A DNA stretch of 64,000 nucleotides from an uncultured Chloroflexia bacterium (GCA_963707215.1 CAVPPB010000002.1:352001-416000); one strand, 5' to 3'. Positions 2,777 to 16,411 are shown, numbered from the stretch's first letter. A program made the numbers and translations. Notes: generated from the letters alone by a model not told the origin.

Positions 2777-3403
2777 ATGAGTCGACGCGGCCACCGGGGA
2801 CGTCCCGGACGCCGCTCCTCGGGCCCCGCCAGCAGCGCCGTCCGGGGCCCGGCGCCCGCGCCCGGCCCCAGTGCCCGACCCGAGGACGGCGAGGCGACCT
2901 CGGCGTCGGCTGCGCCCGCCCCAGGCCAGCGTGCGCTGCCTCCATCGGCCGCCCGTGCCGACGGTCCGGCCCGGGTTCCTGCGGACGGGCCGACCGGCAA
3001 CGGCAACCTCCCGCACCTGGAGCGACCCGAGCCGGCGGCCGACCGGGCGCTCGGCACGGCCGTGACCCCTCGACGCGAGCCTGACGGCGAACCCGGCGCC
3101 AACGGTGCGGATGGCCAGGGCCGGAGCGGCGCCACACTCGCCCAGCTCCGCAGGTTCATCAAGAGCCGCCCCTACATGCCGATGCACGAGCTTCGACGCC
3201 GCTTCAGCCTGGACTGCGAGGCTGACGAAGTGCACTCGATCGACATCGGCGGCCGGTACCTCTACGTCGGCCTTCCCGAGCGCGAGGCGGGCTTCGTCGG
3301 CGAGCTGATCCGGACCGGCGAGGTGGGCTACGAGCTCCTGTTGGACCCGACCTGCCCGCTCGTCATCGGCGTCTACGCGATGCGCCCCGTGGTGCGGTCC
3401 TGA
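2777..3403 (+). CDS. hypothetical protein (disordered N-terminus, compact C-terminal domain)
   Basis: GGGGAGG RBS before ATG; C-terminal ~95 aa globular-looking (TLAQLRRFIKSRPY...VIGVYAMRP) with high GC3 codons. Confidence 0.7.
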   Translation: MSRRGHRGRPGRRSSGPASSAVRGPAPAPGPSARPEDGEATSASAAPAPGQRALPPSAARADGPARVPADGPTGNGNLPHLERPEPAADRALGTAVTPRREPDGEPGANGADGQGRSGATLAQLRRFIKSRPYMPMHELRRRFSLDCEADEVHSIDIGGRYLYVGLPEREAGFVGELIRTGEVGYELLLDPTCPLVIGVYAMRPVVRS

Positions 3404-3417
3404 CCGCACCCTTCGCT

Positions 3418-3483
3418 GTCGGCTGGACGACAGGAGGGGCGTCGTCAGGGCGGCTGGACGCAGTGGGCGGCTGCCGCCAAGAT
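3418..3483 (+). promoter_or_regulatory. shared upstream element (copy 1) + putative -10
   Basis: GTCGGCTGGACGACAGGAGGGGCGTCG at 3418-3444, then CAAGAT at 3478 (33-nt gap). Confidence 0.55.
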
Positions 3484-3530
3484 GGAGCGGACGCGACGAG
3501 CGACCCGTCGCCGCAGTGGGGTTCGAGACC

Positions 3531-3731
3531 ATGACGAAGCAGCAGAAGCCGATCGAACCGGACGACGCGGCCCCCCGCGTCGCCGAGGACGAGGACGACG
3601 TCGAAGGGCACAACATGATGCCGCTCGACCCGTCGTCTGCTCGCCATCTGGCGGGCGCGCGCGAGCGCGAGATCCGCAGCGACCTCGCCCGGCGCCAGCG
3701 CGAGCATGAGGCTCGACCGCACAAGCGCTGA
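3531..3731 (+). CDS. 66-aa small protein with acidic EDEDDVEGH motif (candidate precursor peptide)
   Basis: ORF followed by terminator; DVEGH motif shared with ORFs at 6938-7423 and 15587-16300. Confidence 0.75.
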   Translation: MTKQQKPIEPDDAAPRVAEDEDDVEGHNMMPLDPSSARHLAGAREREIRSDLARRQREHEARPHKR

Positions 3732-3750
3732 CCGACCGCCGGCCACGACG

Positions 3751-3782
3751 AGCGGCGTCCCCCGGGGCGCCGCTTCTTCGTG
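3751..3782 (+). terminator. intrinsic terminator
   Basis: AGCGGCGTCC...GGGCGCCGCT GC stem followed by TCTTCGTG just after the stop. Confidence 0.65.
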
Positions 3783-3873
3783 TGCGTCACGCCCGACATG
3801 AGCTTGGTCCCGCCGGACCGGTCCGGGTCCCCGGCACGACTCGGGACCCGTTCGGTCGTGGCGCTCCGTCGGA

Positions 3874-3984
3874 GTCGCCTGGGCGACAGGACGGAGGGCG
3901 CCGGCGCGACGGCTCGGCGGCCGGCCCGTCGACAGCCCAGACGTCGTCCAGGGGATCGCCCCGGTGGGACGACCGGGGCACCAT
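3874..3984 (+). promoter_or_regulatory. shared upstream element (two copies) + putative -10
   Basis: GTCGCCTGGGCGACAGGACGGAGGGCG (3874-3900) and GCCGGCCCGTCGACAGCCCAGACGTCG (3920-3946); CACCAT at 3979 (32-nt gap). Confidence 0.45.
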
Positions 3985-4047
3985 GAGGGCATCGATTGAA
4001 CGGACCCGAGCAGCACCAGCCGCGAGGGTCAGGAAGGGGACCGACCG

Positions 4048-4272
4048 ATGCTCGACACGAACAGCCGCTACATCGTCGCCAGCCGGACGATCGACGACCG
4101 CCTCGCCGAGGTCCGTCGAGCTCACGTCCTTCGCGAGGCCCGCGCCGGCGAGGACCAGCTCAAGGTCTCGACGCGGGTCCAGCGGGGGCCATCGCTTCTC
4201 GATCGCCTCGTCGCGGCGGTCGGCGCCCTTGGCGCCGGCGACCGGACCGCTCGCCCGGCAGGCGCTCGCTAG
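4048..4272 (+). CDS. 74-aa small helical hypothetical protein
   Basis: AGGAAGGGG RBS before ATG; high GC3; weak ungapped similarity to the post-DVEGH part of the 3531 peptide. Confidence 0.65.
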   Translation: MLDTNSRYIVASRTIDDRLAEVRRAHVLREARAGEDQLKVSTRVQRGPSLLDRLVAAVGALGAGDRTARPAGAR

Positions 4273-4317
4273 GATCTCGCCGTCCTCGATCGTTCCCCTC
4301 CCGCCCGGAGTGCCGGG

Positions 4318-4347
4318 TTGTCACTCCCGGACCGGCCCGCGTAGCAT
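4318..4347 (+). promoter_or_regulatory. putative sigma70-type promoter of crp-GAF-S8 operon
   Basis: TTGTCA-N18-TAGCAT; imperfect palindrome AGTGCC-N5-GTCACT (4309-4325) overlaps the -35. Confidence 0.4.
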
Positions 4348-4402
4348 GACTCGCGGGCCGGTCCGTTCGTTTGCCTCGGGCCCGGCGGCAGGAGAGGTTG
4401 GC

Positions 4403-5104
4403 ATGTCGGAGGACGACGGCTTCGCGCTGGAGGCGCTCCGCCGGTGCGCGCTCTTCGCCCAGGCCGACGAGGCGACGCTCCGTTCCTGCGCAGCCCAGCT
4501 GCGGACGAGACGCTTCCGCCGCGGCGAGACCATCTTCCACCAGGGCGATCCGGGAGACTCGCTGTTCATCATCCAGGACGGCTCGGTCAAGATCGTCCTC
4601 CCGTCACCCGAGGGCGAGGAGGCAGCCATCATCGCGACCCTGGGTCGCGGCGACTTCTTCGGTGAGCTGGCGCTCCTCGATGGGGCCTACCGCTCGGCCA
4701 CGGCCGTCGCGGTCGAGGCGTCCGAGACGCTGGTGCTGCGGCGAGAGCCGTTCGCCGCCCTCATCGACAGTGACCCCGGCCTGCGCCACGCGCTCCTGGC
4801 TGGTCTCGCAGCCGAACTGCGGCGCCTGACCGGTCACGTCGAGGAGCTCCACTTCCTGGACCTGCCAGGCCGGCTCGCGAGCCGGCTCGTCCGGATGGCC
4901 CAGGAACAGGACCCGGCTGCCAGCGGCGAGGTCGTGCTCGCCTGGCCGTTCACCCAGTCGGAGCTGGCCGCCATGATCGGGGGGACGCGGCAGACCGTGA
5001 ACCGGCTGCTCGCCGACCTGGTCGCCCAGGACCTCATCCGGTTCGAGCCCGACCGGCTGGTCATCACGGACCTCGAGCGCCTCTCCCGGGCGGCCGAGCG
5101 TTGA
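4403..5104 (+). CDS. Crp/Fnr family transcriptional regulator
   Basis: GGAGAGG RBS; cNMP domain (IFHQGDPG, GDFFGELALL, RSATAVA) and HTH TQSELAAMIGGTRQTVNR. Confidence 0.95.
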   Translation: MSEDDGFALEALRRCALFAQADEATLRSCAAQLRTRRFRRGETIFHQGDPGDSLFIIQDGSVKIVLPSPEGEEAAIIATLGRGDFFGELALLDGAYRSATAVAVEASETLVLRREPFAALIDSDPGLRHALLAGLAAELRRLTGHVEELHFLDLPGRLASRLVRMAQEQDPAASGEVVLAWPFTQSELAAMIGGTRQTVNRLLADLVAQDLIRFEPDRLVITDLERLSRAAER

Positions 5105-5132
5105 ACGCCGGTCGCGGGATCCGGCGCGGCCG

Positions 5133-5939
5133 ATGACGAGCCAGGGCCCGCCAGAAGCCTCCGACCTCGAGCGCGCCCTCGAGGCACTCCGGGCGGTGGC
5201 CCTCAGGGCCGAGGCTGCCCGGCGGCTCGAGCTCGGGAGCGGCGAGGCCGTCCTGCGGTCGGTCGTGGAGGCGGCCGTCTCCCTCTTCGACGCCGAGGCC
5301 GCGTCGATCGCGCTCTACGACCCGAGCGCGGATCGGCTGGTGTTCCTGGTCGCCGCCGGCGACCAGGGCCAGGGCGTCGTTGGCCTGTCGATCGGGCCCG
5401 ATCAGGGTCTCGTCGGCTACGTGTTCCAGACCGGTCAGCCGCTGGCCCTGTCGGATGTCCAGCGGGACCCCAGATTCGGGCGCTCCTTCGCCGAGAAGAC
5501 GGCCTACATCCCCCGGTCGATCGTCGCGGTGCCGCTCCTTGACGAGCAGGGCACCGTCGGGGTCCTCGAGGTCCTCGACAAGCGCGACGCGACGGCCTTC
5601 AGCCTGCGCGACATCGAGCTCACCTCGGTCTTCGCCCGCCAGGCGGCCGTCGCCATCCGCTCATCGCGGGTGGAGCGTGAGTCTGCCCTCCTCCTGGAGG
5701 AGGTGCTCCGGGCGACCCTCGGCGACCAGGTCGACGACCGGACCGTCGATGTCCTGGTGGCCGCGGCCGTCGATGATCTCGCCCGCGACGACACGGGAGC
5801 CCTCTGGGCGCTCGTCGAGCAGGTCGCCCGGGTCCGCCGGGCCGATCCGGATCAGCTCGCCCTCGTCACGGACCTGCTCGCCGTGCTGGCCGATCACGCC
5901 GGGCGCGGCCGAGCCGGTCGCCGGGCCCGTCGCGCCTGA
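5133..5939 (+). CDS. stand-alone GAF domain protein
   Basis: GAF pattern (EAASIALYD, GLVGYVFQTGQPL, DPRF, SIVAVPL, GVLEVLDK, FSLRDIEL); helical tail, no kinase or cyclase domain. Confidence 0.9.
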   Translation: MTSQGPPEASDLERALEALRAVALRAEAARRLELGSGEAVLRSVVEAAVSLFDAEAASIALYDPSADRLVFLVAAGDQGQGVVGLSIGPDQGLVGYVFQTGQPLALSDVQRDPRFGRSFAEKTAYIPRSIVAVPLLDEQGTVGVLEVLDKRDATAFSLRDIELTSVFARQAAVAIRSSRVERESALLLEEVLRATLGDQVDDRTVDVLVAAAVDDLARDDTGALWALVEQVARVRRADPDQLALVTDLLAVLADHAGRGRAGRRARRA

Positions 5940-5945
5940 GCCGCG

Positions 5946-6783
5946 ATGACCGACGAGGCGCTCCTGCCCGCCTGGAGCGAGCCGTTCGCCGGCGAGCGAC
6001 GGACCAGGCTGAGCCACCTGCCGCCATTCGGACGGCTCGGGCGCGACTGGGCCTGGGGAGGGTCCGACGGCAGCGGCTGCACGGTCGCGATCATCGACTC
6101 GGGGATCGAGCCCGATCACCCCGACGTCGGCGGTCGGTTGCTCCGGAGCGTCGTCGTCGAGCTCGACGCGGAGGGCGAGCCGGTCGTCCGCGACGACCCC
6201 GAGGCTCGCGACGTCGTGGGACACGGCACGGCCTGCGCCGGGATCGTCCATGCGCTTGCCCCGGGGGCGGACATCCTGTCCATCCGCGTGCTCGGCCCCG
6301 ACAACCGCGGCAAGGGCGCGGTCTTCGCCGCCGGCCTGGACTGGGCGATCGAGGCCGGTGCCAGCGTCGTCAACCTGAGCCTGTCGTCGAAGAGCGAGGC
6401 CCTGTTCGGGGTCTTCCACGACCTCGCCGATCGGGCCTACTTTGCGAACACTCTGCTGGTCTCGGCCGCCAACAACTACCCGGGTGCGTCGTACCCGTCG
6501 CTCTTCGCCGCGGTGGTCTCGGTCGCCGCCCACGATCTCGCCGATCCGGCCGTCTACCTCTACAACCCGGATCCGCCCGTCGAGTTCGGAGCCCACGGCG
6601 TCGACGTCGAGGTCGCCTGGCGGGGCGGTACGCCGGATGGTCGCCACGGGCAACAGCTTCGCGGCCCCGCACATCGCCGGGTACGCGGCGCTGATCCGTT
6701 CCAAGCACCCGGAGGCGTCCCCGTTCGAGGTGAAGGCGATCCTCGCGGCGACCGCCGACAACGCCCGCGCCCCGGTCGGCTGA
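5946..6783 (+). CDS. compact cytoplasmic S8 subtilase; +1 frameshift near 6633
   Basis: Catalytic Asp VAIIDSGI and His GHGTACAG in frame 5946; Ser motif TGNSFAAPHIAG in the next frame ending 6783; no signal peptide or prodomain. Confidence 0.88.
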
Positions 6784-6937
6784 TCAGCACCTGACCGGTC
6801 GGCCGAGGCGGACCCGGGACACGCGTCGCCGCCCGCCGGATCCGACGCTGGGCCGGGGGCGGGCGGCGGTGCTGAGGAACGGGAGCCGGGTCGTGGGAGC
6901 GAGGCCCGGCGGGACCCGTCCGATCAGGTGGTCGGTC

Positions 6938-7423
6938 TCACTCCCCGCTGTTCCGGGCAGTCCGGAAGCCGTGGCCCTCGACGTCGTCGTCCTCGGTGGC
7001 CTTCGGCACTGCGCCCTCGCGCGGGATCCCCGCCTCGCGCGGCACCCCTGCCTCACGGGGCAATCCGGCCTCGCGGGGCTGGCCGAAGCCGTGGCCCTCG
7101 ACGTCGTCTTCGGTCGGGACGGCGCCCTCGCGCGGGATGCCCGCCTCGCGCGGGATGCCCGCCTCGCGCGGGATGCCCGCCTCGCGCGGCACCCCTGCCT
7201 CACGGGGCAATCCGGCCTCGCGGGGCTGGCCGAAGCCGTGGCCCTCGACGTCCTCGTCACCGGTGGCCCGGGGGACGGCGCCTTCGCGCGGGATCCCCGC
7301 CTCGCGCGGCACCCCGGCCTCACGGGGCAATCCGGCCTCGCGGGGCTGGCCGAAGCCGTGGCCCTCGACGTCCTCGTCGTCGGACTCCCGCGTACGCATG
7401 AAGCCCTCGTTCTCGTTGACCAT
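6938..7423 (-). CDS. multi-cassette repeat protein: 4x DVEGHGF separating xPREAG hexapeptide arrays (candidate polyprotein precursor)
   Basis: GGAGG RBS just upstream of ATG (7430-7434); repeats in frame; DVEGH motif shared with two other ORFs. Confidence 0.8.
   Translation of the reverse strand: MVNENEGFMRTRESDDEDVEGHGFGQPREAGLPREAGVPREAGIPREGAVPRATGDEDVEGHGFGQPREAGLPREAGVPREAGIPREAGIPREAGIPREGAVPTEDDVEGHGFGQPREAGLPREAGVPREAGIPREGAVPKATEDDDVEGHGFRTARNSGE
6965..7380. repeat. nested tandem repeat: 18-bp units within three ~120-150-bp cassettes
   Basis: Recurring gaagccgtggccctcgacgtc and gcctcgcgcgggatgccc-like units. Confidence 0.95.
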
Positions 7424-7478
7424 GTCGTTCCTCCGCTGGGAGCCGGTCGGCGGGCCGATCGCCCGCGGCTACCAGGGC

Positions 7479-7544
7479 AGACTACCGTGCGTGTCGAGAC
7501 TCGGCGTAGCGGCGTGGTGACCGCTCCGCTGTCGCCGAGCCGAC
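7479..7544 (-). promoter_or_regulatory. shared upstream element + putative -10
   Basis: Minus strand GTCGGCTCGGCGACAGCGGAGCGGTCA (7544-7518), then TAGTCT at 7484-7479 (33-nt gap). Confidence 0.55.
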
Positions 7545-7565
7545 ACCGCAGGCGACGGCACCGAC

Positions 7566-9242
7566 CTAGGGACGGCGGACGCCCGGTCCCCGATACAACT
7601 CCATGAGGCGGACCGACAGGCCAGGTCCGGCACCCACGAGCGCGAGGAAGTCGGAGCCGTCGAGGACGAGGAGTCGGCCCTCGGACAGGGCGGTCACGGT
7701 CGCGGTCCGGGGCGTCTCGCGGAGCAGGCCGAGCTCGCCGAAGACTCGGTCCGGGCCGAGCTCCCGGAGTCGCACCGGCTGCCCGTCGGCGTCCGCCTGG
7801 TCCACGGCGAACCGGCCATCCTCGATGACGTAGAAGCGGTCGGCCGGCTCGCCCTCCCGCACGACGACCTGGCCGGCCGCGACCGTCAGGGGCTCGAGGC
7901 GGGCGACGGCCGCCTCCATGGCCGCCGGGGGCACGCCTGCGAAGAGCGGAAGGCCGGCGACCCGCCGCAGCGTCGCCGACGGCCCATCCGGGGCCATACT
8001 CAGGTCAGGGCCGACGAGCGCGACGGCGACGACCGCGGCGACCACGACCGCCGCACCGGTCGCAGCGAGGACCGGCAGCGGCCCGAGGCTGTCGGCCAGC
8101 ACCGGGACCACCAGCGAGCCCGCGGCGTACGCCAGCGTGGAGACGGTCAGGATCCCGCCGAGGGCCCGTCCGCGGATGGCATCCGGGACGAGCCGTTGGA
8201 AGACGGTCGTCCCGACGACCTCGACGATCAGGCTGCCGGTCGCCGTCGCGGCCATCGCCACGAGGGCGAGCGCGACGATGTCGGCCGCCCCGAGTACGGC
8301 GAGCCCGATGCCCAGCAGCACCGCCCCACCGAGGAGCGGCCCGGCGAGCGACGGACGGAGCACGAGTGCGCCGCTGCCGACCGCGCCGATGAGCCCGCCC
8401 ACCCCGATCGCCGCATTGAGGTAGCCGGTCACCTCCTCGCCGGCCCCGAGCTGGTCGCTCGCCAGCAGGACCGTCAGGACGCCCAGCCCGCCGAACGCGA
8501 ACCCGCCCACGACGTCGAGCGTGCCCAGCCCGATCAAGGGGCGCAGGACGGGCCGGAGCAGCGAGGCAGCGGTCTCGGACGGGGCATCGTTCTTGGCTGG
8601 GGCGTCGCCACCGGGCGCGGGCGTCCCGGCGTCGTCGCGGCTGACCGTGCCCTTCGATGACGGCAGCGTCCAGAGGACGATCGCGACGATCCCGAACGTG
8701 ATCGCGTTGAGGATGAACGCCAGTCCCAGGTCGGCGACCGCCAGCAGCAGCCCGGCCAGGCCCGGTCCGACGATGAAGGCCAGGTTGTCGAGCCCGGCCC
8801 AGGCGCTGTTGGCCGGCCCGAGCTCGCGCTCGTCGCGGACCAGGGTCGGCAGGTAGGACCCGATGGCCGGCCCGAAGAACGCCGAGAAGCAGGTCGCCAC
8901 GATGGCCACGAGGACGATCCCGACGAGGGGACCGTCTGTGAGGACCAGCCAGGCCAGGACCACCATGCAGAGGCCCCGCGCGAGGTCGGTCGTGAAGAGC
9001 ACGAGCCGGCGGTCGAAGCGGTCGGCGGCCAGCCCGGCCGGTAGCGAGAGGACCACGTAGGGCAGCACCCGGGCGGCCCCGACGAGACCGAGAAGGAAGG
9101 CGTCGTTGCTCTCGCGGTAGACGACGACGAGCAGGGCGACGAGGTAGAGCCAGTCGCCGATCGACGAGACGAACTCGCCGGCCAGGAGCCGTGTCACCGG
9201 TCGGTTCGACAGCAGCGCGCGGTAGGTCGCCATCGCGCCCAT
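7566..9242 (-). CDS. MFS transporter with C-terminal cyclic-nucleotide-binding domain
   Basis: About 12 TM segments, GLAADRFDRR motif A; C-terminal VVVREGEPADRFYVIEDG...FGELGLL...RTATVTA; start approximate. Confidence 0.92.
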   Translation of the reverse strand: MGAMATYRALLSNRPVTRLLAGEFVSSIGDWLYLVALLVVVYRESNDAFLLGLVGAARVLPYVVLSLPAGLAADRFDRRLVLFTTDLARGLCMVVLAWLVLTDGPLVGIVLVAIVATCFSAFFGPAIGSYLPTLVRDERELGPANSAWAGLDNLAFIVGPGLAGLLLAVADLGLAFILNAITFGIVAIVLWTLPSSKGTVSRDDAGTPAPGGDAPAKNDAPSETAASLLRPVLRPLIGLGTLDVVGGFAFGGLGVLTVLLASDQLGAGEEVTGYLNAAIGVGGLIGAVGSGALVLRPSLAGPLLGGAVLLGIGLAVLGAADIVALALVAMAATATGSLIVEVVGTTVFQRLVPDAIRGRALGGILTVSTLAYAAGSLVVPVLADSLGPLPVLAATGAAVVVAAVVAVALVGPDLSMAPDGPSATLRRVAGLPLFAGVPPAAMEAAVARLEPLTVAAGQVVVREGEPADRFYVIEDGRFAVDQADADGQPVRLRELGPDRVFGELGLLRETPRTATVTALSEGRLLVLDGSDFLALVGAGPGLSVRLMELYRGPGVRRP

Positions 9243-9433
9243 CGCTACGGCGCCCACGTCCGCGTGCTCGACCCCTCCGCCATCGGGGGAGTGTACGGCT
9301 CGTCCCGCCGCTCGCGCCGGTCGTCGGGGTGCGGACAGGACCATCGAAGGGTGGTCTGCGCTCCGGGCGGCGGGCAGGCTAGCGAGGTCGTCGGCGCGAC
9401 CGCGTCTGGGTCAAGGAAAGCGGGAGGCTCCCC

Positions 9434-12050
9434 ATCAACGTTCGCCGAGCGCTGCTCGCAGCGCTGCTCCTCGTCGTCGTGTCCACGGGAGGGACCTCGG
9501 CCGCCGAGCCGGTCCCGTCACCCGCAGCATCCAGCCCACCCGTCGAACCGAGCGTGTCCCCGCTCCCGCCCGACCCTGTCGTCGCCGCTCCCGAGGTCGA
9601 GCAAGTCCCGGCAGCCGCCGGACCCGTCGGCGCGCCCGACGTCGCAGCCGAGCCACTCTCGGCCAGGGGCCGGTACATCGTCCTGCTTCGCGACGGCTCG
9701 ACCTCCGCGCTGGCGAGCTCGCTCGGTCGTCGCTGGGGGTTCCAGCCCGATCGCGTGTTCAGCCGGGCGGTCCGGGGCTTCTCGGCGACGCTGCCGGACG
9801 CGGTCCGCGACCGCCTCGCCCGCGACCCGGACGTCGCAGCGGTGATCCCCGACGAGGTCATCGAGCTCGCCTGGGTGCGCCCGACCGGGATCCGCAGGGT
9901 CAACGCCCCGAGCTCGCCGCTCGCCGACATCGACGCCATCGACGACGCCCGGGTCGATGCCGACATCGCGATCGTGGATACCGGGATCGATCGGACCCAC
10001 CCTGACCTCGACGTCGTCGGCGGCATCAACTGCTCGACGAGCGATCCGAACGCCTGGCGTGACGTGCACGGCCACGGGACCCACGTCGCCGGCACGGCCG
10101 CGGCCATCGACAAGTCGAGCGGGGTCGTCGGCGTCGCCCCCGGCGCCCGGCTGTGGGCGGTCAAGATCCTCAACGACCAGGGCGACGGCCTGCTGTCCTG
10201 GTACGTCTGCGGGCTCGACTGGATCGCCGCCCAGCGCGACCCGTCCGACCCTGACCGGCCGCTCTTCGAAGCGGTCAACATGAGCGTCACCAAATCGGGG
10301 AGCGACGACCAGGCCTGCGGGGACCGCAACGGCGACATCCTCCACCAGGCCATCTGCCGGCTCGTCGGCAGCGGGGTCACCGTCGTCGCGGCGGCCGCCA
10401 ACGACAGCAAGGACGCCGCACTGCGCGTGCCGGCCTCGTACGACGAGGTCATCACGGTCTCGGCGCTGGCCGACATGGACGGGCTCCCCGGCGGGAAGGG
10501 GCCCCAGCTCTGCGGCTCGTACGACGCCGACGACACGTTCGCCGACTTCTCGAACTACGGCGCCGACGTCGACATCATCGCGCCCGGCAAGTGCATCTGG
10601 TCGACCCTCCGGGGGAACCGCTACGGCTACTCGTCGGGGACATCGATGGCGGCACCGCACGTCACCGGCGCCGTCGCCCTGTACAAGGCGTCCCGACCGG
10701 AGGCCACTCCGGCCGAGATCAAGGAGGCCCTGCGGTTCCTGGGGACCTCGGATTGGAAGACCTGGACGGATCCGGATCCCTGGCACGAGCCGCTCCTCGA
10801 CGTGTCACGGCTCGGCCCCCTGGGATCGTTCTCGATGGCTGTCCTGCCCGAGTCCTCCGGCACCGGCGGTGATGACAGCGCCGAGACGACGGTCACCGCC
10901 ACGGTCGCCCTCGTCCGATCGACCACCTTCTTCGAGCCGGTGTCCCTGGCGGCCGAGACGCCCGACGGCATCACCGCGACATTCGACAAGCCGCGCCTCA
11001 TGGGCTTCGGGGTCACCGGGACGACCATGACCCTGACCGCCGCTCCCGGCATCGACCCCGCCGAGATCCCGGTGACGATCCGGGCGACCTACAAGGACAT
11101 CGTCCGGACCACGACCCTGACCCTCGACGTCGAGCCAGCCGCGGTCCGCCTCGCCGGGGCCGACCGCTACGCGACCGCCGCGGCGATCAGCGCGGCCTCC
11201 TTCGGCCCGGGGGTCGCCGTCGCCTACGTGGCCACCGGGGCGAACTTCCCCGACGCCCTCGCCGGCAGCGCCGCCGCCGGCAGCGCCGGGGCCCCGGTCC
11301 TGCTCGTCACGAGGGACACCATCCCGACCGCCACCGCGACCGAGCTCGGCCGCCTCAAGCCGGGTCGGATCGTCGTCCTCGGCGGCGCCTCCGTCGTGAC
11401 CGACGCGGTCAAGGCGGCCCTCGCGCGGTACACCGCCGGCTCGGTCAGCCGCCTCGCCGGGGCCGACCGCTACGCGACCGCCGCGGCGATCAGCGCGGCC
11501 TCCTTCGGCCCGGGGGTCGCCGTCGCCTACGTGGCCACCGGGGCGAACTTCCCCGACGCCCTCGCCGGCAGCGCCGCCGCCGGCAGCGCCGGGGCCCCGG
11601 TCCTGCTCGTCACGAGGGACACCATCCCGACCGCCACCGCGACCGAGCTCGGCCGCCTCAAGCCCGCTCGGATCGTCGTCCTCGGCGGCGCCTCCGTCGT
11701 GACCGACGCGGTCAAGGCGGCCCTCGCGCGGTACACCGCCGGCTCGGTCAGCCGCCTCGCCGGGGCCGACCGCTACGCGACCGCCGCGGCGATCAGCGCG
11801 GCCTCCTTCGGCCCGGGGGTCGCCGTCGCCTACGTGGCCACCGGGGCGAACTTCCCCGACGCCCTCGCCGGCAGCGCCGCCGCCGGCAGCGCCGGGGCCC
11901 CGGTCCTGCTCGTCACGAGGGACACCATCCCGACCGCCACCGCGACCGAGCTCGGCCGCCTCAAGCCCGCTCGGATCGTCGTCCTCGGCGGCGACCGGCG
12001 TCGTGACCGACGCGGTCAAGGCGGCCCTCGCGCGGTACACCAGGCCGTAG
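9434..12050 (+). CDS. secreted S8 subtilase with inhibitor-I9-like prodomain and three cell-wall-binding-2 (CWB2)-like repeats; +1 frameshift near 11993
   Basis: IAIVDTGI, GHGTHVAG, SGTSMAAPHV triad; repeats RLAGADRYATA...FPDAL...PVLL...VVLGG; signal peptide if started at ATC 9434; last repeat completes at TAG 12050 in the shifted frame. Confidence 0.85.
11147..12041 (+). repeat. three near-identical 303-bp tandem repeats (CWB2-like domains)
   Basis: Unit start cgcctcgccggggccgaccgctac at 11147, 11450 and 11753. Confidence 0.95.
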
Positions 12051-12065
12051 GCCTGGCTGGACCCC

Positions 12066-12719
12066 TCAGCCGCCCTCCCCGGGCATCGCCAGGGCGGCAG
12101 TCGGCAGGACCGTGCCCTCGAGCGAGAGCAGCTCTCGCTTGAGCTCGAGGAGCTCCTCGCGGGTCCCGAACCAGGACCCGCCGTAGCCACCGAGCGTCCC
12201 ATCGCCGGCGATGACCCGGTGGCAGGGCACGATCAGGCCGATCGGGTTCCGGCCGACGGCCCCGCCGGTCGCCCGGGCGGCCCCGTGTGCACCGATCGCC
12301 GTCGCGACCCGTCCATAGCTGGTCACGCGACCCCACGGGACGCTCCGGACGGCCTCGAGCACCCGGCGGTCCCAGGCGGATAGCCCCCGCAGGTCGATGG
12401 GCAACGACAGCCTCTCGGGCTCCCCTGCCCAGAAGCGGTCCAGGTGTCGCGCGAGCCGGTCGATCAGGGCTCGTCGGGCCGCTCCGGCACGACGGCCTGC
12501 GATCGGATCACGGTGCGTCCGCCGCACCAGGTGAGATGCGAAGGCATCGTCGGTCGATCGGAGCTCGAGCGCCACGACGGCCTGCGTGGTGACGGCCAAC
12601 CGCACGGGGCCCAGGGGACCGTCGAGGACCGCGATCGCGGTCGTCGCCGCCCCGGCGGGCGCTTCCTGCGCACGGTCGACCAGCGCGGCCGTCGGGGGCT
12701 CGGTCTCGTCTCCCGGCAT
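12066..12719 (-). CDS. ogt: methylated-DNA--protein-cysteine S-methyltransferase
   Basis: [24 protein letters not shown], active site PCHRV, GGYGG. Confidence 0.93.
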
Positions 12720-12729
12720 GTCGCAAGTC

Positions 12730-12771
12730 TTGCCGTTCAGGACGGCCGACTGCTATACTCGGGGGGAGTAT
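12730..12771 (+). promoter_or_regulatory. copA promoter with CsoR-type operator
   Basis: TTGCCG-N18-TATACT; palindrome ATACTC-GGGGG-GAGTAT (12755-12771) with G-tract. Confidence 0.7.
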
Positions 12772-12773
12772 CG

Positions 12774-15497
12774 ATGGACATCACCACCGCGTCCCCGACC
12801 CCGCCAGCCGGCAGCGCACCGCTGGAAGTCCAGCTGCCCGTGGCCGGGATGACCTGCGCCTCGTGCGTCAACCGCATCGAGCGGTTCCTCAACAAGACCC
12901 CGGGGGTCGAGGAGGCGACGGTCAACCTCGCCACCGAGATGGCGACCATCCGGTACCTGCCGAACCTCGCGGGCCGCAGCGACCTCGTCGGCGCGATCGA
13001 GGCGGCTGGCTACGAGGTCAAGCCGTCGGCCCTCGTGGAGCCGGCCGCGGACGACGGGGCATCCGCCGCCGACGCGCTCGAGGCGGCCCAGGCGGCCGAG
13101 GAGGTCGAACGGGCGCGCGAGCTGCGCCTGATGCTGACCCAGTCGATCGTCGCCGTCGCCGTCGCCCTGGTCGCCATGGTCCTCATGTTCTGGCCGCAGA
13201 CGGTCGTCCCGATGGAGGAGCTCAACAAGCTCATCCTCTGGCCCGCCACGATCGTCCAGTTCTGGGCCGGCGGCCGTTTCTACCGGGCGGCCTGGCGAGC
13301 GCTCCGTCACGGCGGAGCCACGATGGACACCCTGGTCGTAGCCGGGACCAGCGCCGCCTGGGTCTACTCGGTCTTCGTCACCATGTGGCCCGAGGTCATC
13401 CACGCGGCGGGCCTGCACCCCGAGACCTACTTCGAGTCCTCGGCGATCATCATCGGCCTCGTCCTGCTGGGTCGCTGGCTCGAGCTGCGCGCCCGAGGCC
13501 AGACGACCGGCGCGATCCGACGCCTGATGGGTCTCCAGGCGACGACCGCCCGGCTCGTCCGCGGCGACGAAGAGGTCGACGTCCCACTCGCCCAGGTCGT
13601 GACCGGCGACCTGCTGCGGGTCCGCCCCGGCGACAAGGTCCCGGTGGACGGGGTGCTCGTCGAGGGCGGGTCGGCCGTCGACGAGTCGATGCTCACGGGC
13701 GAGGCCATCCCGGTGTCCAAGGCCATCGGCGACGAGGTCATCGGGGCGACCATCAACACGACCGGGTCGTTCGTCATGCGGGCGACCCGGGTCGGTCGCG
13801 AGACCGCCCTCGCCCGGATCGTCGAGATGGTCCAGCGTGCGCAGGGCTCCAAGGCCCCCATCCAGCGCCTCGCAGATCGGATCTCGGCCTGGTTCGTCCC
13901 GTTCGTCCTCATCGTCGGCGCCATCACCTTCGCCATCTGGTTCCTGGGTGGGCCGGAGCCCCGCCTGACCCTGGCGCTCACCGCCTTCATCGCGGTCGTC
14001 GTCATCGCCTGTCCGTGTGCCATGGGCCTCGCCACGCCCACCGCGATCATGGTCGGGACCGGCAAGGGGGCCGAGGCCGGCGTCCTGGTCCGTGGGGGCG
14101 AGGCGCTCGAGATCGCGCACAAGGTCGACGCCGTCCTGTTCGACAAGACCGGGACCCTGACCCTGGGCCGCCCGGCCGTGGCCGGGGTCGTCCCGGCCGA
14201 TGGCTGGTCGGCGGGCGAGATCCTGGACCTCGCCGCGTCGGCCGAGAAGGGCAGCGAGCACCCGCTGGCGGAAGCGATCGTCGCCAGAGCGCAGCAGGAT
14301 GAGCTCGGCTTCCGGGCCGTCGACGGGTTCGAGGCCGTTGCCGGTCACGGGGTGGTGGCGACGGTCGACGGCCGGCGCGTCCTGGTCGGCAACGCCCGGC
14401 TGCTTGCCGAGCACGCGGTCGCGATCGAGCGGCTGGAGGATGTCGCGGCGGCCGAGGCCGCGAACGGGCGCACCCCGGTCTTCGTCGCCGTCGACGGCCA
14501 GCCGGCCGGGGTCGTCACGATCGCCGATCCGGTCAAGGCCGAGTCCGCGCAGGCGATCCGGCAGCTCGCCGGCATGGCCGTCGACGCCTGGATGATCACC
14601 GGCGACCGGCGGACGACGGCCGAGGCGGTCGCCCGCCAGGTCGGCATCCCCTCGGACCGGGTGCTCGCGGAGGTCCTGCCCGGCGACAAGGCCGCAGCGG
14701 TCGAGCGTCTCCAGGCCGAGGGCCGGACGGTCGCGATGGTCGGTGACGGGATCAACGACGCGCCCGCGCTCGCGCAGGCCGACCTCGGCATCGCCATCGG
14801 CACCGGGGCGGACGTCGCGATCGAGGCGTCGGATATCACGCTCGTCGGCGGCGATCCCCGTGGGGTCGTCTCGGGCCTGGTCCTCTCCCGGCGGACGATG
14901 CGGGTGATCCGCCAGAACCTCTTCTGGGCGTTCGCCTACAACGTCCTGCTCATCCCGGTGGCGATGGGCGCCCTGTACCCGACCTTCGGGATCACCCTCG
15001 CGCCGGCGATGGCGGCCGGAGCGATGGCCCTCTCGTCGGTGTCGGTGGTCACGAACTCGCTCCGGCTGCGCTCGGTCCGCATCCGCCCGGACGAGGTCCG
15101 CGCGGAGGGGCGGGGCCTGGGCGCGCGGATCGCGGACGCATCCTTCCTGGCGGTCATCGCCCTCCTCGCCGGCGGGCTGGTGGCCGGGGTCATCGCTGCC
15201 GACCGGGCCGTCGCGGCCGGGTCGACCCAGGTCGACCTGGTGGCCCGGGACGTCGCCTTCTCGACCGACGAGATCCGGGTCCGGGCCGGCGAGCTGTTCA
15301 CCGTGACGCTGGTCAACGAGGACCCGGTCCTCCATGACTGGATGGTCGAGGGTGTTGCCAACGTCGAGGTCATCGCCAGGCCCGGCGCCACGGCGAGCGA
15401 CCGGTTCGTCATCGACCAGCCCGGGACCTACGAGTTCATCTGCTCGTACGAGGGCCACGCCGAGGCCGGCATGGTCGGGATGCTCATCGTCGAGTAG
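12774..15497 (+). CDS. copA: Cu(I)-translocating P1B-type ATPase with C-terminal cupredoxin domain
   Basis: [33 protein letters not shown] and MALSS motifs; tail with H...[11 protein letters not shown]. Confidence 0.95.
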
Positions 15498-15543
15498 GCC
15501 CGACCGGGACGGCTCGCGGGCCAGCCGCTGCAGCGGACATGAA

Positions 15544-15571
15544 GAAGCGGGCGCCCCCCGGCGCCCGCTTC
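15544..15571. terminator. hairpin/terminator between convergent genes
   Basis: GAAGCGGGCGCC-CCCC-GGCGCCCGCTTC 12-bp stem; followed by TTC on the minus strand. Confidence 0.75.
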
Positions 15572-15586
15572 GTTGGCTGTGTGGCG

Positions 15587-16300
15587 CTACTGGGCCCGAG
15601 GCTCCCCGGGGCGCCCGACCATGTCGTCGGCGGCGTCCTTCGGAGCCAGCGGCCCCGCCGGCCCGCCATCTCGGTCGCGGACGGCGGGGTTGGCCGAGTC
15701 CGGGGCCTGCACGGCCGTCCGGCTGACCGCCTCGTCCGGGGTGGCATCGCGGACCATCGGATCGACCCAGGCCGGAGCCGGCGGTGTCTTCGCCAGGTCG
15801 CCGGCCCGGATCTCCGCGGCCAAGCCCGGCGCCACGGCGGGGGCGGGGATCGCCCGCGACCCCGCGAGGTCTCCGCCCGCGATCTCGGCGGCAAGGCCGG
15901 GTGCCATGTCAGGGACCGGGATGGACGCGGCCTGCGTCTGGCTACCGGCGGTCGGGGCTGTCAGATCAGAGACCAGCATCGAGGTCGTCGCTGCCCCAAC
16001 AACGATGACACCGGCGATCCCCGCCGCCAGGAGCTTGCGCTGCAGGTCGCGGGCCGCCTCGGCGTTCGGCAGCCGCAGCGAGAGGGCGTGGCCCTCGACG
16101 TCGTCCTCATCGAACAGTCGCAGGGTGACGGTCGTGGACAGGCCGTGGCCCTCGACGTCGGCGCTCTCGTCTGCCGCGATCCGCATCTTGTTGCCGGCAT
16201 AACCGGTCGCGAGGAGATCACGGAGCTGCCCGCTGATCGCCCCCTCGATCGCCCCTTCGACCTCTGTCCCGTCCGCGAGCTTCAGTCGCAGCGCGCTCAT
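15587..16300 (-). CDS. single-TM membrane protein with two DVEGH motifs before the TM and duplicated APGLAAEIxxGDLA repeat after it
   Basis: GAGGTG RBS before ATG 16300; SADVEGHG and DEDDVEGHA; TM LLAAGIAGVIVVGAA. Confidence 0.75.
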   Translation of the reverse strand: MSALRLKLADGTEVEGAIEGAISGQLRDLLATGYAGNKMRIAADESADVEGHGLSTTVTLRLFDEDDVEGHALSLRLPNAEAARDLQRKLLAAGIAGVIVVGAATTSMLVSDLTAPTAGSQTQAASIPVPDMAPGLAAEIAGGDLAGSRAIPAPAVAPGLAAEIRAGDLAKTPPAPAWVDPMVRDATPDEAVSRTAVQAPDSANPAVRDRDGGPAGPLAPKDAADDMVGRPGEPRAQ

Positions 16301-16346
16301 CTCCAGCCACCTCATGGTCGGGTCGCCTGTCGTCCCGTGCCCCAGC

Positions 16347-16411
16347 ACTCTAGGCGCGACGCAGGCCTACGACCAGTCCTCCAGCGACATGGCGCCTGTC
16401 GTCTGGCTGAC
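16347..16411 (-). promoter_or_regulatory. shared upstream element + putative -10
   Basis: Minus strand GTCAGCCAGACGACAGGCGCCATGTCG (16411-16385), then TAGAGT at 16352-16347 (32-nt gap). Confidence 0.55.

Follow-up and report, generated by a model that had tools for sequence, protein, structure and literature searches.

Why does one pentapeptide, DVEGH, recur in three unrelated open reading frames (ORFs) around genes for a Crp/Fnr-type regulator, a stand-alone GAF protein and a compact S8 subtilase? The window analyzed here, a 64-kb stretch of DNA, comes from an uncultured soil/sediment Chloroflexota of the class Limnocylindria. We found no published description of a DVEGH/GAF–S8 system in the literature.

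Three motif genes surround a Crp–GAF–S8 gene set

A sequence-only reading of the locus had reported seven DVEGH copies in three ORFs (one, four and two copies, respectively). Checking of the coordinates located all of them, each with one to three acidic residues before the motif. Six-frame translation of the 3,257,968-base genome yielded 13 DVEGH pentapeptides; because seven of these fall in a 13 kb stretch, chance is excluded as the source of the clustering. The remaining six lie outside this stretch in long frames rich in Arg, Gly and Asp. Codon-position GC was about 0.8/0.5/0.9 in the three motif ORFs, and the same profile was seen in the Crp, GAF, MFS and ATPase genes. The Crp/Fnr–GAF–S8 set sits between the first two motif ORFs (3531–3731 and 6938–7423), and the repeat ORF is directly preceded, on its own strand, by a gene for an MFS–cNMP fusion protein (7566–9344, minus strand), both as had been described.

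The three ORFs encode proteins of different classes. The class A protein (plus strand; 3531–3731 from an ATG, 66 aa, or 3516–3731 from a GTG, 71 aa) is small and has one EDEDDVEGH sequence (motif at 3597–3611); the roughly 40 aa beyond it form a conserved tail, basic and helical, that ends with RPHKR in the window. In an alignment of 29 members (A3), the D, E, G and H residues and one R were invariant. This family comprises 351 cluster representatives (E ≤ 1e-3) among 1.84 billion proteins; of the ten that were looked up, six were annotated as "hypothetical protein" and four were nameless, and class A had no match in Pfam or NCBIfam. The class B protein (minus strand, 6938–7423, 161 aa) carries four units ending with D[ED]DVEGH (motif starts at 7372, 7252, 7105 and 6985). 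Its [DE]nDVEGHGF units are separated by PREAG-rich spacers, which in the window are not cationic (net charge of -3 to -4), and it ends with the tail GFRTARNSGE. The gene has a gene-like GC3 in the window and a Shine–Dalgarno sequence, GGAGGA, 6 nt ahead of the ATG. Neither the class A nor the class B protein of the window contains Cys. The class C protein (minus strand, 15587–16348, 253 aa; also delimited as 15587–16315) is a membrane protein whose N-terminal domain carries the motif twice, as ADVEGH (motif start at 16159) and DDVEGHALSLRLP (motif start at 16102), with a transmembrane-like helix beyond them and then a tail rich in Pro and Ala. This architecture was common to 14 instances, and both sites were invariant in their alignment (A4).

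Motif genes accompany the GAF–S8 pair across genomes

The GAF gene adjoins the S8 gene in 133 of 135 loci. Among the 55 loci that were fetched, D[VTAI]EGH was found within 3 kb of the pair in 49, and in 53 when close variants were included. The density was 198 occurrences in 403 kb near the pair versus nine in 570 kb farther off, with a background of 16 in 3.26 Mb elsewhere in the window's genome. In family f4, where the operon order is Crp, repeat, GAF, S8, the repeat ORF lies between the Crp and GAF genes on the same strand in 14 of 20 loci and directly upstream of the GAF gene in four more; the class C gene is adjacent and convergent to the S8 gene in four loci of this family (L067, L071, L079 and L083). 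The order is S8–GAF in family f18, and DVEGH repeat ORFs are still close by. A sister clade whose S8 proteins are 52–58% identical also retains a repeat ORF between the Crp and GAF genes, with DEVEAHS, EVSGHS, EVIAHK or EVKLQS as the repeat motif. Class B counterparts beside the GAF–S8 pair in other genera have the same motif and unrelated spacers, so that the motif is kept in orthologues while the spacers diverge.

Genome-wide counts, tallied by hand from tables, gave at least three strict DNA-pattern matches in 43 of 84 S8-positive f1 genomes, in none of the 54 S8-negative f1 genomes and in 2 of 92 f3 genomes. Motif proteins occurring independently of the pair were looked for in S8-negative genomes; the matches inspected (8 + 12 loci) were arginine-rich frames without repeats, which look like chance occurrences and not genuine motif proteins. 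Conversely, a recognizable motif ORF was absent at two of the 55 loci (L087 and L089) and at 14 of 20 more distant GAF–S8 loci from other Chloroflexota families, and GAF–S8 can therefore occur with no repeat gene close by. Together, these results show that the original observation is real, with stronger support than the window alone could give, and that the motif proteins and Crp–GAF–S8 form one conserved system, as had been proposed. The actinobacterial setting suggested in that proposal gained no support from the analysis, in which the system was found in Chloroflexota.

Neighboring genes in the fetched loci were identified by tblastn with the window proteins only, and by this measure the genes recurring beside the pair were Crp, the motif genes and often MFS. 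The MFS–cNMP gene, suggested earlier as a partner of the cassette, was indeed a frequent neighbor (25 of 55 loci). No RiPP-modifying enzyme was among the recurring neighbors.

These features bear on the possibility that the motif is a degron or regulated-turnover tag, through which GAF–S8 destroys or switch-clips tagged proteins and the repeat proteins act as buffers or decoys for the protease. The biology would then be the removal of disordered repeat proteins and of a membrane protein, not peptide making. Such a tag would account for its presence in three unrelated classes, one of them a membrane protein in which both sites are fixed, and for the free evolution of the spacers, which is expected if their sequence is functionless; the lack of a modifying enzyme among the recurring cassette genes and of the MFS gene at more than half of the loci also fits. 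It fits less well with the location of class B genes inside the operon, as for precursors, and with the sister clade, in which a conserved leader-like N-terminal helix and an FDPxKEEY tail are kept around the repeats. In addition, the C-terminal tails are conserved in class A (RPHKK) and in many class B proteins (...[KR]GE), suggesting that the released pieces matter. We consider turnover tagging rather unlikely.

The S8 subtilase is compact and its frameshift is probably an assembly error

The subtilase gene (plus strand, 5946–6783; Pfam PF00082) is split over two frames in the window, with profile positions 1–180 in one (N part, 8.6e-20) and 222–275 in the other (C part, 4.7e-9); the frame changes near 6632, and no single continuous frame is present in the window. 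Because the orthologous gene is open in all 55 fetched loci (269–335 aa) and contigs of related strains have one base fewer at 6632 (three of three covering runs), the break is probably a one-base indel peculiar to this assembly. Biological repair of the enzyme, implied by the "repaired" S8 of the sequence-only reading, is thus most likely unneeded.

In an alignment of 25 orthologues, D51, H93, N177 and S237 were invariant and aligned with D32, H64, N155 and S221 of subtilisin BPN′, that is, an Asp–His–Ser triad in the subtilisin order plus the oxyanion-hole Asn. Judged from this alignment, the catalytic apparatus is intact in the orthologues. No Inhibitor_I9 pro-domain was matched in Pfam, and neither an N-terminal hydrophobic stretch or signal peptide nor a C-terminal anchor was visible by eye.

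PDB sequence matches included chains of intracellular-type subtilases (ISPs; 7xr8, 3.7e-27, and 7y6m, 8.9e-26). Like the Bacillus ISPs, the enzyme is compact, apparently cytoplasmic and devoid of a classical pro-domain, with a short conserved N-terminal extension; the extension carries a LIPY/F motif in ISPs and reads LPAWSEPF in the orthologue alignment. However, ISPs are general proteases without known dedicated, motif-tagged and co-encoded substrates or a GAF partner. The best NCBIfam match of the N-terminal part was QhpE (4.7e-23), a compact internal S8 enzyme that trims a peptide-like subunit. The likeness to QhpE, which acts in quinohemoprotein amine dehydrogenase maturation, lies in being a small subtilisin-like protease, but the score (NF049966; 81.7 bits for the N-terminal part) was far below the curated cut-off of 165, and no qhp-like genes were among the recurring neighbors of GAF–S8. 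Assignment as a type VII secretion mycosin (TIGR03921) was likewise rejected (77.4 + 41.8 bits for the two parts, cut-off of 278.75), and the PatA/PatG model (TIGR03895) did not match the compact S8 protein at E ≤ 0.01. Separately, a large secreted S8 protein encoded at 9479–12142 gave a weak TIGR03895 match (3.3e-8), far under the cut-off.

The motif resembles recognition sites of S8 peptide proteases

According to a review, ElxP, a cytoplasmic S8 enzyme, recognizes (D/E -5)(L/V -4)-X2-(Q -1), and in substrates of PatA-like S8 enzymes the cut follows G(L/V)E(A/P)S. D-V-E-G-H/Q matches the ElxP motif in register and chemistry, with the same P5 acid, an aliphatic P4 and His or Gln at P1. The changes tolerated in the motif are an aliphatic residue at -4, a small one at -2, His or Gln at -1 and a small one at +1, where Gly, Ala or Ser occurs in 94 of 177 instances. 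By analogy with these sites, the shape of DVEGH fits the recognition sites of S8 peptide proteases. The resemblance to known S8 sites put forward earlier is borne out to this extent, and the parallel drawn with cyanobactin PatA was apt. G(L/V)E(A/P)S resembles V-E-G/A-H.

Gln replaces the motif His in every repeat of two independent lineages (L090/L091 and L203). We compared S8 sequences at 86 highly conserved columns, 18 of which are in substrate-cleft segments mapped onto subtilisin BPN′ by sequence alignment. All three deviations in L090/L091 (G122A, N176S and A240T) and two of the three in L203 (L144M and S147C) were in the cleft. Most S8 sequences paired with the usual motif had no cleft deviations. 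Cleft changes also occur in L089, L033 and L029. In this comparison of two lineages, set up only once the data had already been inspected, S8 of the Gln lineages thus appears to deviate mainly in the substrate cleft.

Instead of being cut, D-V-E-G-H might dock on the GAF protein or, as a pseudo-substrate, on the protease, with the repeat proteins scaffolding or inhibiting GAF–S8. The linkage evidence fits binding equally with cutting, and the GAF protein carries an additional helical region at its C terminus. The catalytic-His loop of S8, D-V-V-G-H-G, also resembles DVEGH, but weakly, because the residue after the motif His is variable. Pure docking is harder to reconcile with the invariance of the S8 catalytic residues, with tolerated changes that match the pattern of published S8 cleavage sites, and with the mapping of the rare S8 changes in Gln lineages to the substrate cleft. 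We regard it as quite improbable. Of the earlier interpretation, then, the conserved linked system and the S8-like shape of the site stand; the actinobacterial setting gained no support, and S8 repair is most likely unneeded.

Candidate signaling partners and a neighboring metal ATPase

A promoter-like site on the plus strand (4318–4347; TTGTCA, 18 nt, TAGCAT), a consensus match only, lies upstream of the Crp gene; one such site was found compared with a mean of 0.1 in shuffles. The Crp/Fnr-type regulator, encoded by the first cassette gene (plus strand, 4403–5104), has a cNMP-binding domain (PF00027, 1.3e-27) followed by a Crp-type HTH (PF13545 HTH_Crp_2, 8.1e-17), and its gene is collinear with GAF–S8 in related loci. 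It did not qualify as a CRP equivalog (94.9 bits, cut-off of 266). The stand-alone GAF protein (plus strand, 5133–5939; PF01590, 2.7e-21) was modeled with a pLDDT of 87 as an N-terminal helix, the GAF domain and a C-terminal four-helix region. Foldseek matched the model to GAF domains with a probability of 1.00 (5w10 at 1e-10), and the best fold matches included the cAMP/cGMP-bound 5w10, 2zmf, 1mc0 and 1ykd, along with haem-binding DosS and others. The MFS transporter gives matches to MFS_1 (4.2e-28) and MFS_3 (1.1e-17) and has a C-terminal cNMP-binding domain (1.5e-22). The usual cargo of MFS transporters is small molecules rather than peptides of 40 residues.

A heavy-metal P-type ATPase with CxxC and CPC motifs is encoded at 12444–15497, in the interval that separates the class C gene from the cassette, and is syntenic in several f1 loci. 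This raises the possibility of metal handling, with the acidic run and His binding metal, the repeat proteins serving as buffers or delivery agents for copper, nickel or zinc, the ATPase being the link and the protease incidental. Under one variant of this idea, cleavage ahead of E-G-H would leave an X-X-His copper/nickel site at the new N terminus. Every unit does hold Asp, Glu and His. Yet His is replaced by Gln throughout the repeats of L090/L091 and L203, the ATPase was matched in none of the 20 f4 loci, which have the most compact cassettes, and the linkage seen in all clades is with S8, GAF and Crp rather than with a metal gene. Metal handling is therefore highly improbable.

Comparison with known systems and a model

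Several known systems cut precursors at short sites. ElxP, a subtilisin-family intracellular enzyme like the present one, removes a single leader from a lanthionine-bearing LanB/LanC peptide, whereas the Chloroflexota system has many sites per substrate and a GAF partner; P1 is Gln in ElxP and His here in most lineages. No lanthipeptide enzyme was among the recurring neighbors of GAF–S8 detected with the window proteins, and a class I lanthipeptide (LanP-type) system was rejected, the class A and B precursors of the window having no Cys for lanthionine rings. In the cyanobactin system, the S8 enzymes PatA/PatG cut the multi-cassette precursor PatE at short recognition sequences, which are conserved while the segments between them vary, as in class B. 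In contrast, no heterocyclase was detected among the recurring neighbors by the same tblastn searches, a macrocyclase domain and an AYDG-type second site are absent, the host is not a cyanobacterium and the protease is accompanied by GAF, Crp and cNMP–MFS proteins. Kex2, also of the S8 family, cuts tandem multi-copy fungal precursors (ustiloxin-type and alpha-factor) at a short repeated site. Kex2 systems belong to the eukaryotic secretory pathway, use dibasic sites and repeat the core as the conserved product; here, by contrast, the presumed site is conserved and the intervening parts vary.

We propose, with modest confidence, that the gene set gives uncultured Chloroflexota a proteolytic maturation system directed by the motif: a cytoplasmic subtilase with a GAF partner would cleave multi-copy, small and membrane proteins on the C-terminal side of the motif His, probably under cyclic-nucleotide control. 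The compact subtilase would act jointly with the GAF protein encoded just upstream, reading the acidic-run D-[V/T]-E-G-[H/Q] as P5–P1; the position of the cut, after His, is placed by analogy. Its dedicated substrates, encoded beside it, would be class B, where the motif divides fast-evolving spacers, class A, where it precedes the conserved basic helix, and class C, with two sites in a presumably cytoplasmic N-terminal domain. Such cleavage would release sets of short peptides with ...VEGH at their C termini, set the basic tail free as a peptide and leave the membrane protein clipped. Expression and activity would probably be tied to a cyclic nucleotide via the Crp-type regulator, the GAF protein and the cNMP domain of the MFS transporter, which may export a small product. 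The gene set thus looks like an undescribed form of signal-controlled cutting of proteins into peptides.

The GAF–S8 cassette in the window and its motif ORFs

All the ORFs named in the sequence-only reading were present in the translation of the window, and Pfam upheld the domain calls made there for a Crp/Fnr protein (4403-5104, + strand), a stand-alone GAF protein (5133-5939, +), a compact subtilase S8 (5946-6783, +) and an MFS transporter with a C-terminal cNMP-binding domain (MFS-cNMP; 7566-9344, − strand). The three motif ORFs seen in translation are a small one with EDEDDVEGH (3516/3531-3731, +; class A), a 161-aa ORF of four units that each end in DVEGH (6938-7423, −; class B) and a 253-aa ORF with two DVEGH sites and a hydrophobic helix (15587-16348, −; class C). 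None of the three matched a Pfam or NCBIfam model. Their codon-position GC has the pattern of real genes, and GGAGGA lies six bases upstream of the ATG of the repeat ORF. As had been claimed, an acidic run precedes the motif: the cassette stretch holds seven copies, each with one to three acidic residues in front. The six-frame translation of the window's genome contained 13 copies of DVEGH.

The window has a G+C content of 73%, and its genome consists of 3.26 Mb in five contigs. Record titles of close relatives read uncultured Chloroflexota, class Candidatus Limnocylindria, and every one of these relatives is a metagenome-assembled genome. Soils and sediments are rich in Limnocylindria and in related Chloroflexota.

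A heavy-metal ATPase, a methyltransferase, a ketoacyl synthase and an M24 peptidase are syntenic near the cassette in f1, the family that includes the window's genome. In tblastn searches of the loci of a second family, f4, with the window proteins, the ATPase and the M24 peptidase had no match, and the methyltransferase and ketoacyl synthase gave weaker matches in a few loci. We did not count these four as parts of the system. The P-type ATPase (12444-15497, +) sits between the cassette and the class C gene; its translation carries GMTCASC, CPC and DKTGT and has a cupredoxin-like C-terminal tail with a C..H..M pattern. A further ORF (2777-3403, +) has a conserved C-terminal region of ~100 aa and no Pfam or NCBIfam match; both in the window and in many f1 loci it is flanked by the M24 peptidase and the class A gene, and it may or may not be part of the system.

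Frame breaks in this assembly

The compact S8 (5946-6783) is spread over two frames, with the switch near 6632. Both parts lie in a single frame at L021, a locus from the same genus with an intact S8 at 4175-5005, and at L022; S8 orthologues were open in 55/55 fetched loci (269-335 aa), and all three runs of related-strain contigs covering the site (about 90-99% alike) have one base fewer at 6632. A second break was found near 11990 in a large secreted S8 (9479-12142, +), which comprises an I9 pro-peptide, an S8 domain and three nearly identical cell-wall-binding (CWB2) repeats. The break falls in the last of these repeats; past it the other frame carries on as ...GVVTDAVKAALARYTRP and then stops, and the ORF as assembled overruns into an MGMT gene on the opposite strand. 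Both breaks are probably one-base indel errors of this assembly, although they may be strain-specific mutations.

A constant motif in three classes of protein

The motif was kept in orthologues as predicted, D-V-E-G-H remaining constant while the spacers are unrelated between genera (for example, PREAG, GGHKIPSAT, IAKIARDQ and KHTHHGAP). A logo of 177 distinct instances shows mainly acidic residues (D or E) at positions -3 to -1, ahead of a D and a next position filled by V (127), T (36), A (13) or I (1); E-G-H completes the motif. The residue at +1 after the motif is G, A or S in 94 instances, and a basic residue is common at +4.

In class A proteins, a conserved basic tail, about 40 residues long and with RPHKK or RPNK at its end, comes after the motif. 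The fetched loci contained 31 members, some with additional repeats in front, and a search among 1.84 billion proteins returned 351 cluster representatives at E<=1e-3, or 131 when the threshold was tightened to 1e-10. Ten were looked up; six were named "hypothetical protein" and four had no name. Many class B proteins end in a short conserved tail, ...[KRST]GE. A comparison of this ...GE ending with a Pup-like C-terminal tail was dropped, since it is present in several class B proteins, yet many end otherwise. Fourteen class C instances share two invariantly placed sites, a GHA[ILV][ST]L[RH][FL]P stretch and a transmembrane-like helix; in f4, the class C and S8 genes are neighbors in convergent orientation. 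Extra class A-like and class C genes occur elsewhere on the chromosome in S8-positive genomes (L116, L117, L119, L122 and L123). Cys is absent from the class A and class B proteins of the window. We also considered cationic antimicrobial peptides split by acidic spacers; basic spacers occur in some genera, but the units in the window are net negative, and the idea is not general.

The conserved pieces of the motif proteins are the motif and the C-terminal tails, and the spacers vary freely. Cleavage at the motif is a prediction, and we therefore keep three other explanations beside it: that the motif is a degron-like tag for turnover, that it is a docking motif rather than a cleavage site, or that it is a metal site.

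The motif accompanies the GAF–S8 pair within the class

GAF orthologues (E below 1e-60) were found in 15 of the 24 other genera of the family. We fetched up to 20 kb around 15 GAF loci and later around 40 S8 orthologues from two families, giving 55 loci. Pattern searches of these neighborhoods bore out the proposed association of the motif with the pair in related genomes: 49 of the 55 loci were positive when a single fixed rule was applied, which asked for D[VTAI]EGH, whatever the frame, no more than 3 kb from the GAF–S8 pair. Near the pair the motif occurred 198 times in 403 kb, versus 9 times in 570 kb of more distant sequence; the remainder of the window's genome had 16 matches in 3.26 Mb. 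Four of the six negative loci carry close variants beside the pair, namely DDV[ST]GH repeats at L078, GEDTEGQ at L090 and L091, and GDVVGH at L096. No motif ORF was recognizable beside the pair at the other two, L087 and L089.

GAF adjoins S8 in 133 of 135 loci, and a median of 55 nt separates the aligned parts. In f4, the operon order (MFS-cNMP)-Crp-repeat-GAF-S8 with the strict motif was seen in 14/20 loci, and a repeat gene lies directly upstream of GAF in four more (L066 and L079, and variants in L083 and L078). MFS-cNMP adjoins the cassette in 25/55 loci and is therefore a frequent but not obligate member. Fusion of GAF and S8, a "Rosetta stone" arrangement hinted at by long open frames, was rejected as a general feature: one continuous frame occurs in just 1/133 loci. 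This sole case, a 557-aa frame at L101 (L101:9575-11245, −), is either a natural fusion or an assembly artifact.

By genome, in a sample of 401 from the class, an S8 orthologue (E<=1e-40) was present in 83/137 f1 and 116/153 f4 genomes and in none of the genomes of three other families (f2, 0/16; f3, 0/92; f5, 0/2). Across the genomes sampled from two families, the five-part gene set is found in about 60-75%. The strict DNA pattern DD[VATI]EGH was matched in 100/137 f1, 129/153 f4, 4/16 f2, 38/92 f3 and 1/2 f5 genomes, and a reversed-pattern control matched almost no genome. By hand tally, three or more matches were found in 43 of 84 S8-positive f1 genomes (the window's genome included), in none of the 54 S8-negative f1 genomes and in 2 of the 92 f3 genomes. 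A few unpublished genomes contribute to all these tallies, and genomes that are related do not count as independent samples.

Matches in S8-negative genomes were inspected at 8 loci in 6 genomes of f1 and at 12 loci in 5 genomes of f3, and none of these 20 loci held a genuine-looking motif protein. Every match stood alone in a long frame rich in arginine and aspartate that lacked repeats and the features of classes A and C, and the matches were taken for chance.

A sister clade and further families

A pattern scan with one genome per species found 601 stretches, 588 of them encoding S8 relatives; the strict motif was present in 59 of the best 80 loci, some of the 80 being previously fetched places. 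There is also a sister clade with S8 proteins 52-58% identical, 49-60% G+C and record titles such as Anaerolineales. Its loci keep the order Crp, gap, GAF, S8, and in all eight inspected (L189, L195, L203, L209, L210, L212, L215 and L217) the gap between Crp and GAF holds a repeat protein with a variant motif. The variants are ADEVEAHS[ML], DEVSGHSM, TEVAAHSM, DEVIAHKI and ESLAHGL; at L203, every unit has DEVKLQSM. These proteins share a conserved N-terminal helix (KRLLKKLSALRATL..ER..LD, with a longer form KQDQA.KRLLKKLSALRATL.NDER..LDELV) and a conserved tail, FDPxKEEY. Helix and tail look like a leader and a follower that frame between 3 and about 17 repeat units. When these putative precursors were scanned with Pfam and NCBIfam, no significant match was returned, only sub-threshold noise from the repeats.

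In a phylum sample, the S8 (E<=1e-60) was found in 45/401 genomes, including f18 (10/12), f10, f9, f25 and six more families, so that the S8 of the gene set occurs in at least ten further Chloroflexota families. ORFs with D[VT]EGH lie beside the genes in 6 of 20 distant loci fetched (f18 and f9); at the other 14 GAF–S8 loci, no repeat or motif ORF was found with the patterns used. Three of four f18 loci (L238, L243 and L248) have the order S8-GAF, and the fourth, L241, has GAF then S8 on their strand.

Three S8-bearing records (L188, L209 and L166) are titled as other phyla or families, namely Gaiellaceae, Acidobacteriota and Methylomirabilota. Motif ORFs are present in L188 and L166 and the sister-clade variant in L209; the odd titles may reflect mis-binning or transfer.

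The compact S8 and the predicted cleavage site

The catalytic triad and the oxyanion Asn are invariant in the S8 orthologues aligned, and the compact S8 is under selection as an enzyme. It is nearest by sequence to subtilisin BPN', thermitase and intracellular serine proteases. Pfam found no Inhibitor_I9 pro-domain in it, and on visual inspection a hydrophobic N-terminal stretch was absent from the compact S8 and from the class A and class B proteins.

D-V-E-G-H is best read, by analogy, as a site that the S8 would cleave. According to a review of RiPP proteases (PMC10885120), ElxP, a cytoplasmic S8, has the recognition motif (D/E -5)(L/V -4)-X2-(Q -1), and cyanobactin precursors with several cassettes are cleaved by PatA-like S8 enzymes behind G(L/V)E(A/P)S. 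Set against these ElxP and PatA sites, D-[V/T]-E-G-[H/Q] has the same register: P5 is acidic, P4 aliphatic and P2 small, and P1 is His or Gln. His is replaced by Gln in every repeat of two independent lineages (L090/L091 and L203), a change more in keeping with a P1 pocket than with a metal site.

We also compared 62 S8 sequences, in which 86 columns are highly conserved, 18 of them in four cleft segments. These segments align to BPN' 99-104, 123-130, 152-160 and 219-226, the substrate-binding segments of subtilisin. All three deviations of the L090/L091 S8 (G122A, N176S and A240T) fall in the cleft segments, as do two of three in L203 (L144M and S147C), and most S8 sequences with the usual motif have no cleft-segment deviation. 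Covariation of the Q motif with S8 cleft changes is suggestive in this alignment, because the comparison was designed once the data had been looked at and draws on two lineages. In the S8 of L089, three cleft positions that are otherwise conserved have changed (L144M, A174S and N176S), which hints at a different or lost substrate.

The catalytic-His loop of the S8 reads D-V-V-G-H-G-T in f1 (alignment A1, L021 positions 89-95) and resembles D-V-E-G-H-G. This likeness probably arises by chance from the general subtilase signature D-x-x-G-H-G-T, given that the motif His is followed by a variable residue. Ahead of the catalytic core, a conserved LPAWSEPF stretch was seen in the 25 S8 orthologues of alignment A1. 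In Bacillus intracellular subtilisins, an N-terminal LIPY/F segment is a regulatory extension, and LPAWSEPF might be its counterpart.

Putative sensing domains

The GAF protein was modeled with good confidence (pLDDT 87) as a GAF domain flanked by an N-terminal helix on one side and a four-helix C-terminal region on the other. Its best fold matches are GAF domains, some solved with cAMP or cGMP and others haem-binding. An RRE-like leader-binding domain was considered but not supported, as the C-terminal region is all-helical in the model and has no RRE beta strands. Crp and MFS each match the canonical cNMP-binding domain in Pfam. A search of the window for the E. coli-type Crp box TGTGA-N6-TCACA (<=2 mismatches) gave one match, far from the cassette, versus about 9 expected by chance.

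Place among known systems and implications

The likeness to ElxP and PatA lies in recognition-sequence-guided processing by S8 proteases; the system described here belongs to neither family. The compact S8 scored below the NCBIfam family cut-offs for QhpE and mycosin and did not match the PatA/PatG model. No modifying enzyme was found among the genes recurring beside the GAF–S8 pair, with neighbors matched by tblastn with the window proteins. Literature searches on the motif, the host group, subtilisin-processed precursor peptides and ElxP recognition turned up no description of a GAF–S8/DVEGH system. We regard the system as an internal subtilase partnered by a GAF protein, with predicted multi-copy substrates that are motif-tagged and encoded alongside it and with three sensor domains of cyclic-nucleotide type; it is widespread in uncultured Chloroflexota.

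A bolder proposal, which we advance tentatively and consider rather unlikely as a whole, is that these genes specify ribosomal peptides of a new class in Chloroflexota, unmodified and multi-copy. A "peptide factory" of GAF and S8, gated by a cyclic nucleotide, would cut polyproteins at D-V-E-G-H into many short exported signals or effectors and would also clip a membrane protein, thereby coupling second-messenger state to peptide output and membrane signaling. If this is true, prohormone processing would have a counterpart in bacteria.

The family of motif proteins is sizeable and has no name. If the cleavage reading holds, the S8 would be a protease with a compact, portable recognition site, its substrates would be a new precursor family not expected to be flagged by present genome-mining tools, as no Pfam or NCBIfam model matches them, and cyclic-nucleotide sensing would be linked to peptide production in these bacteria.
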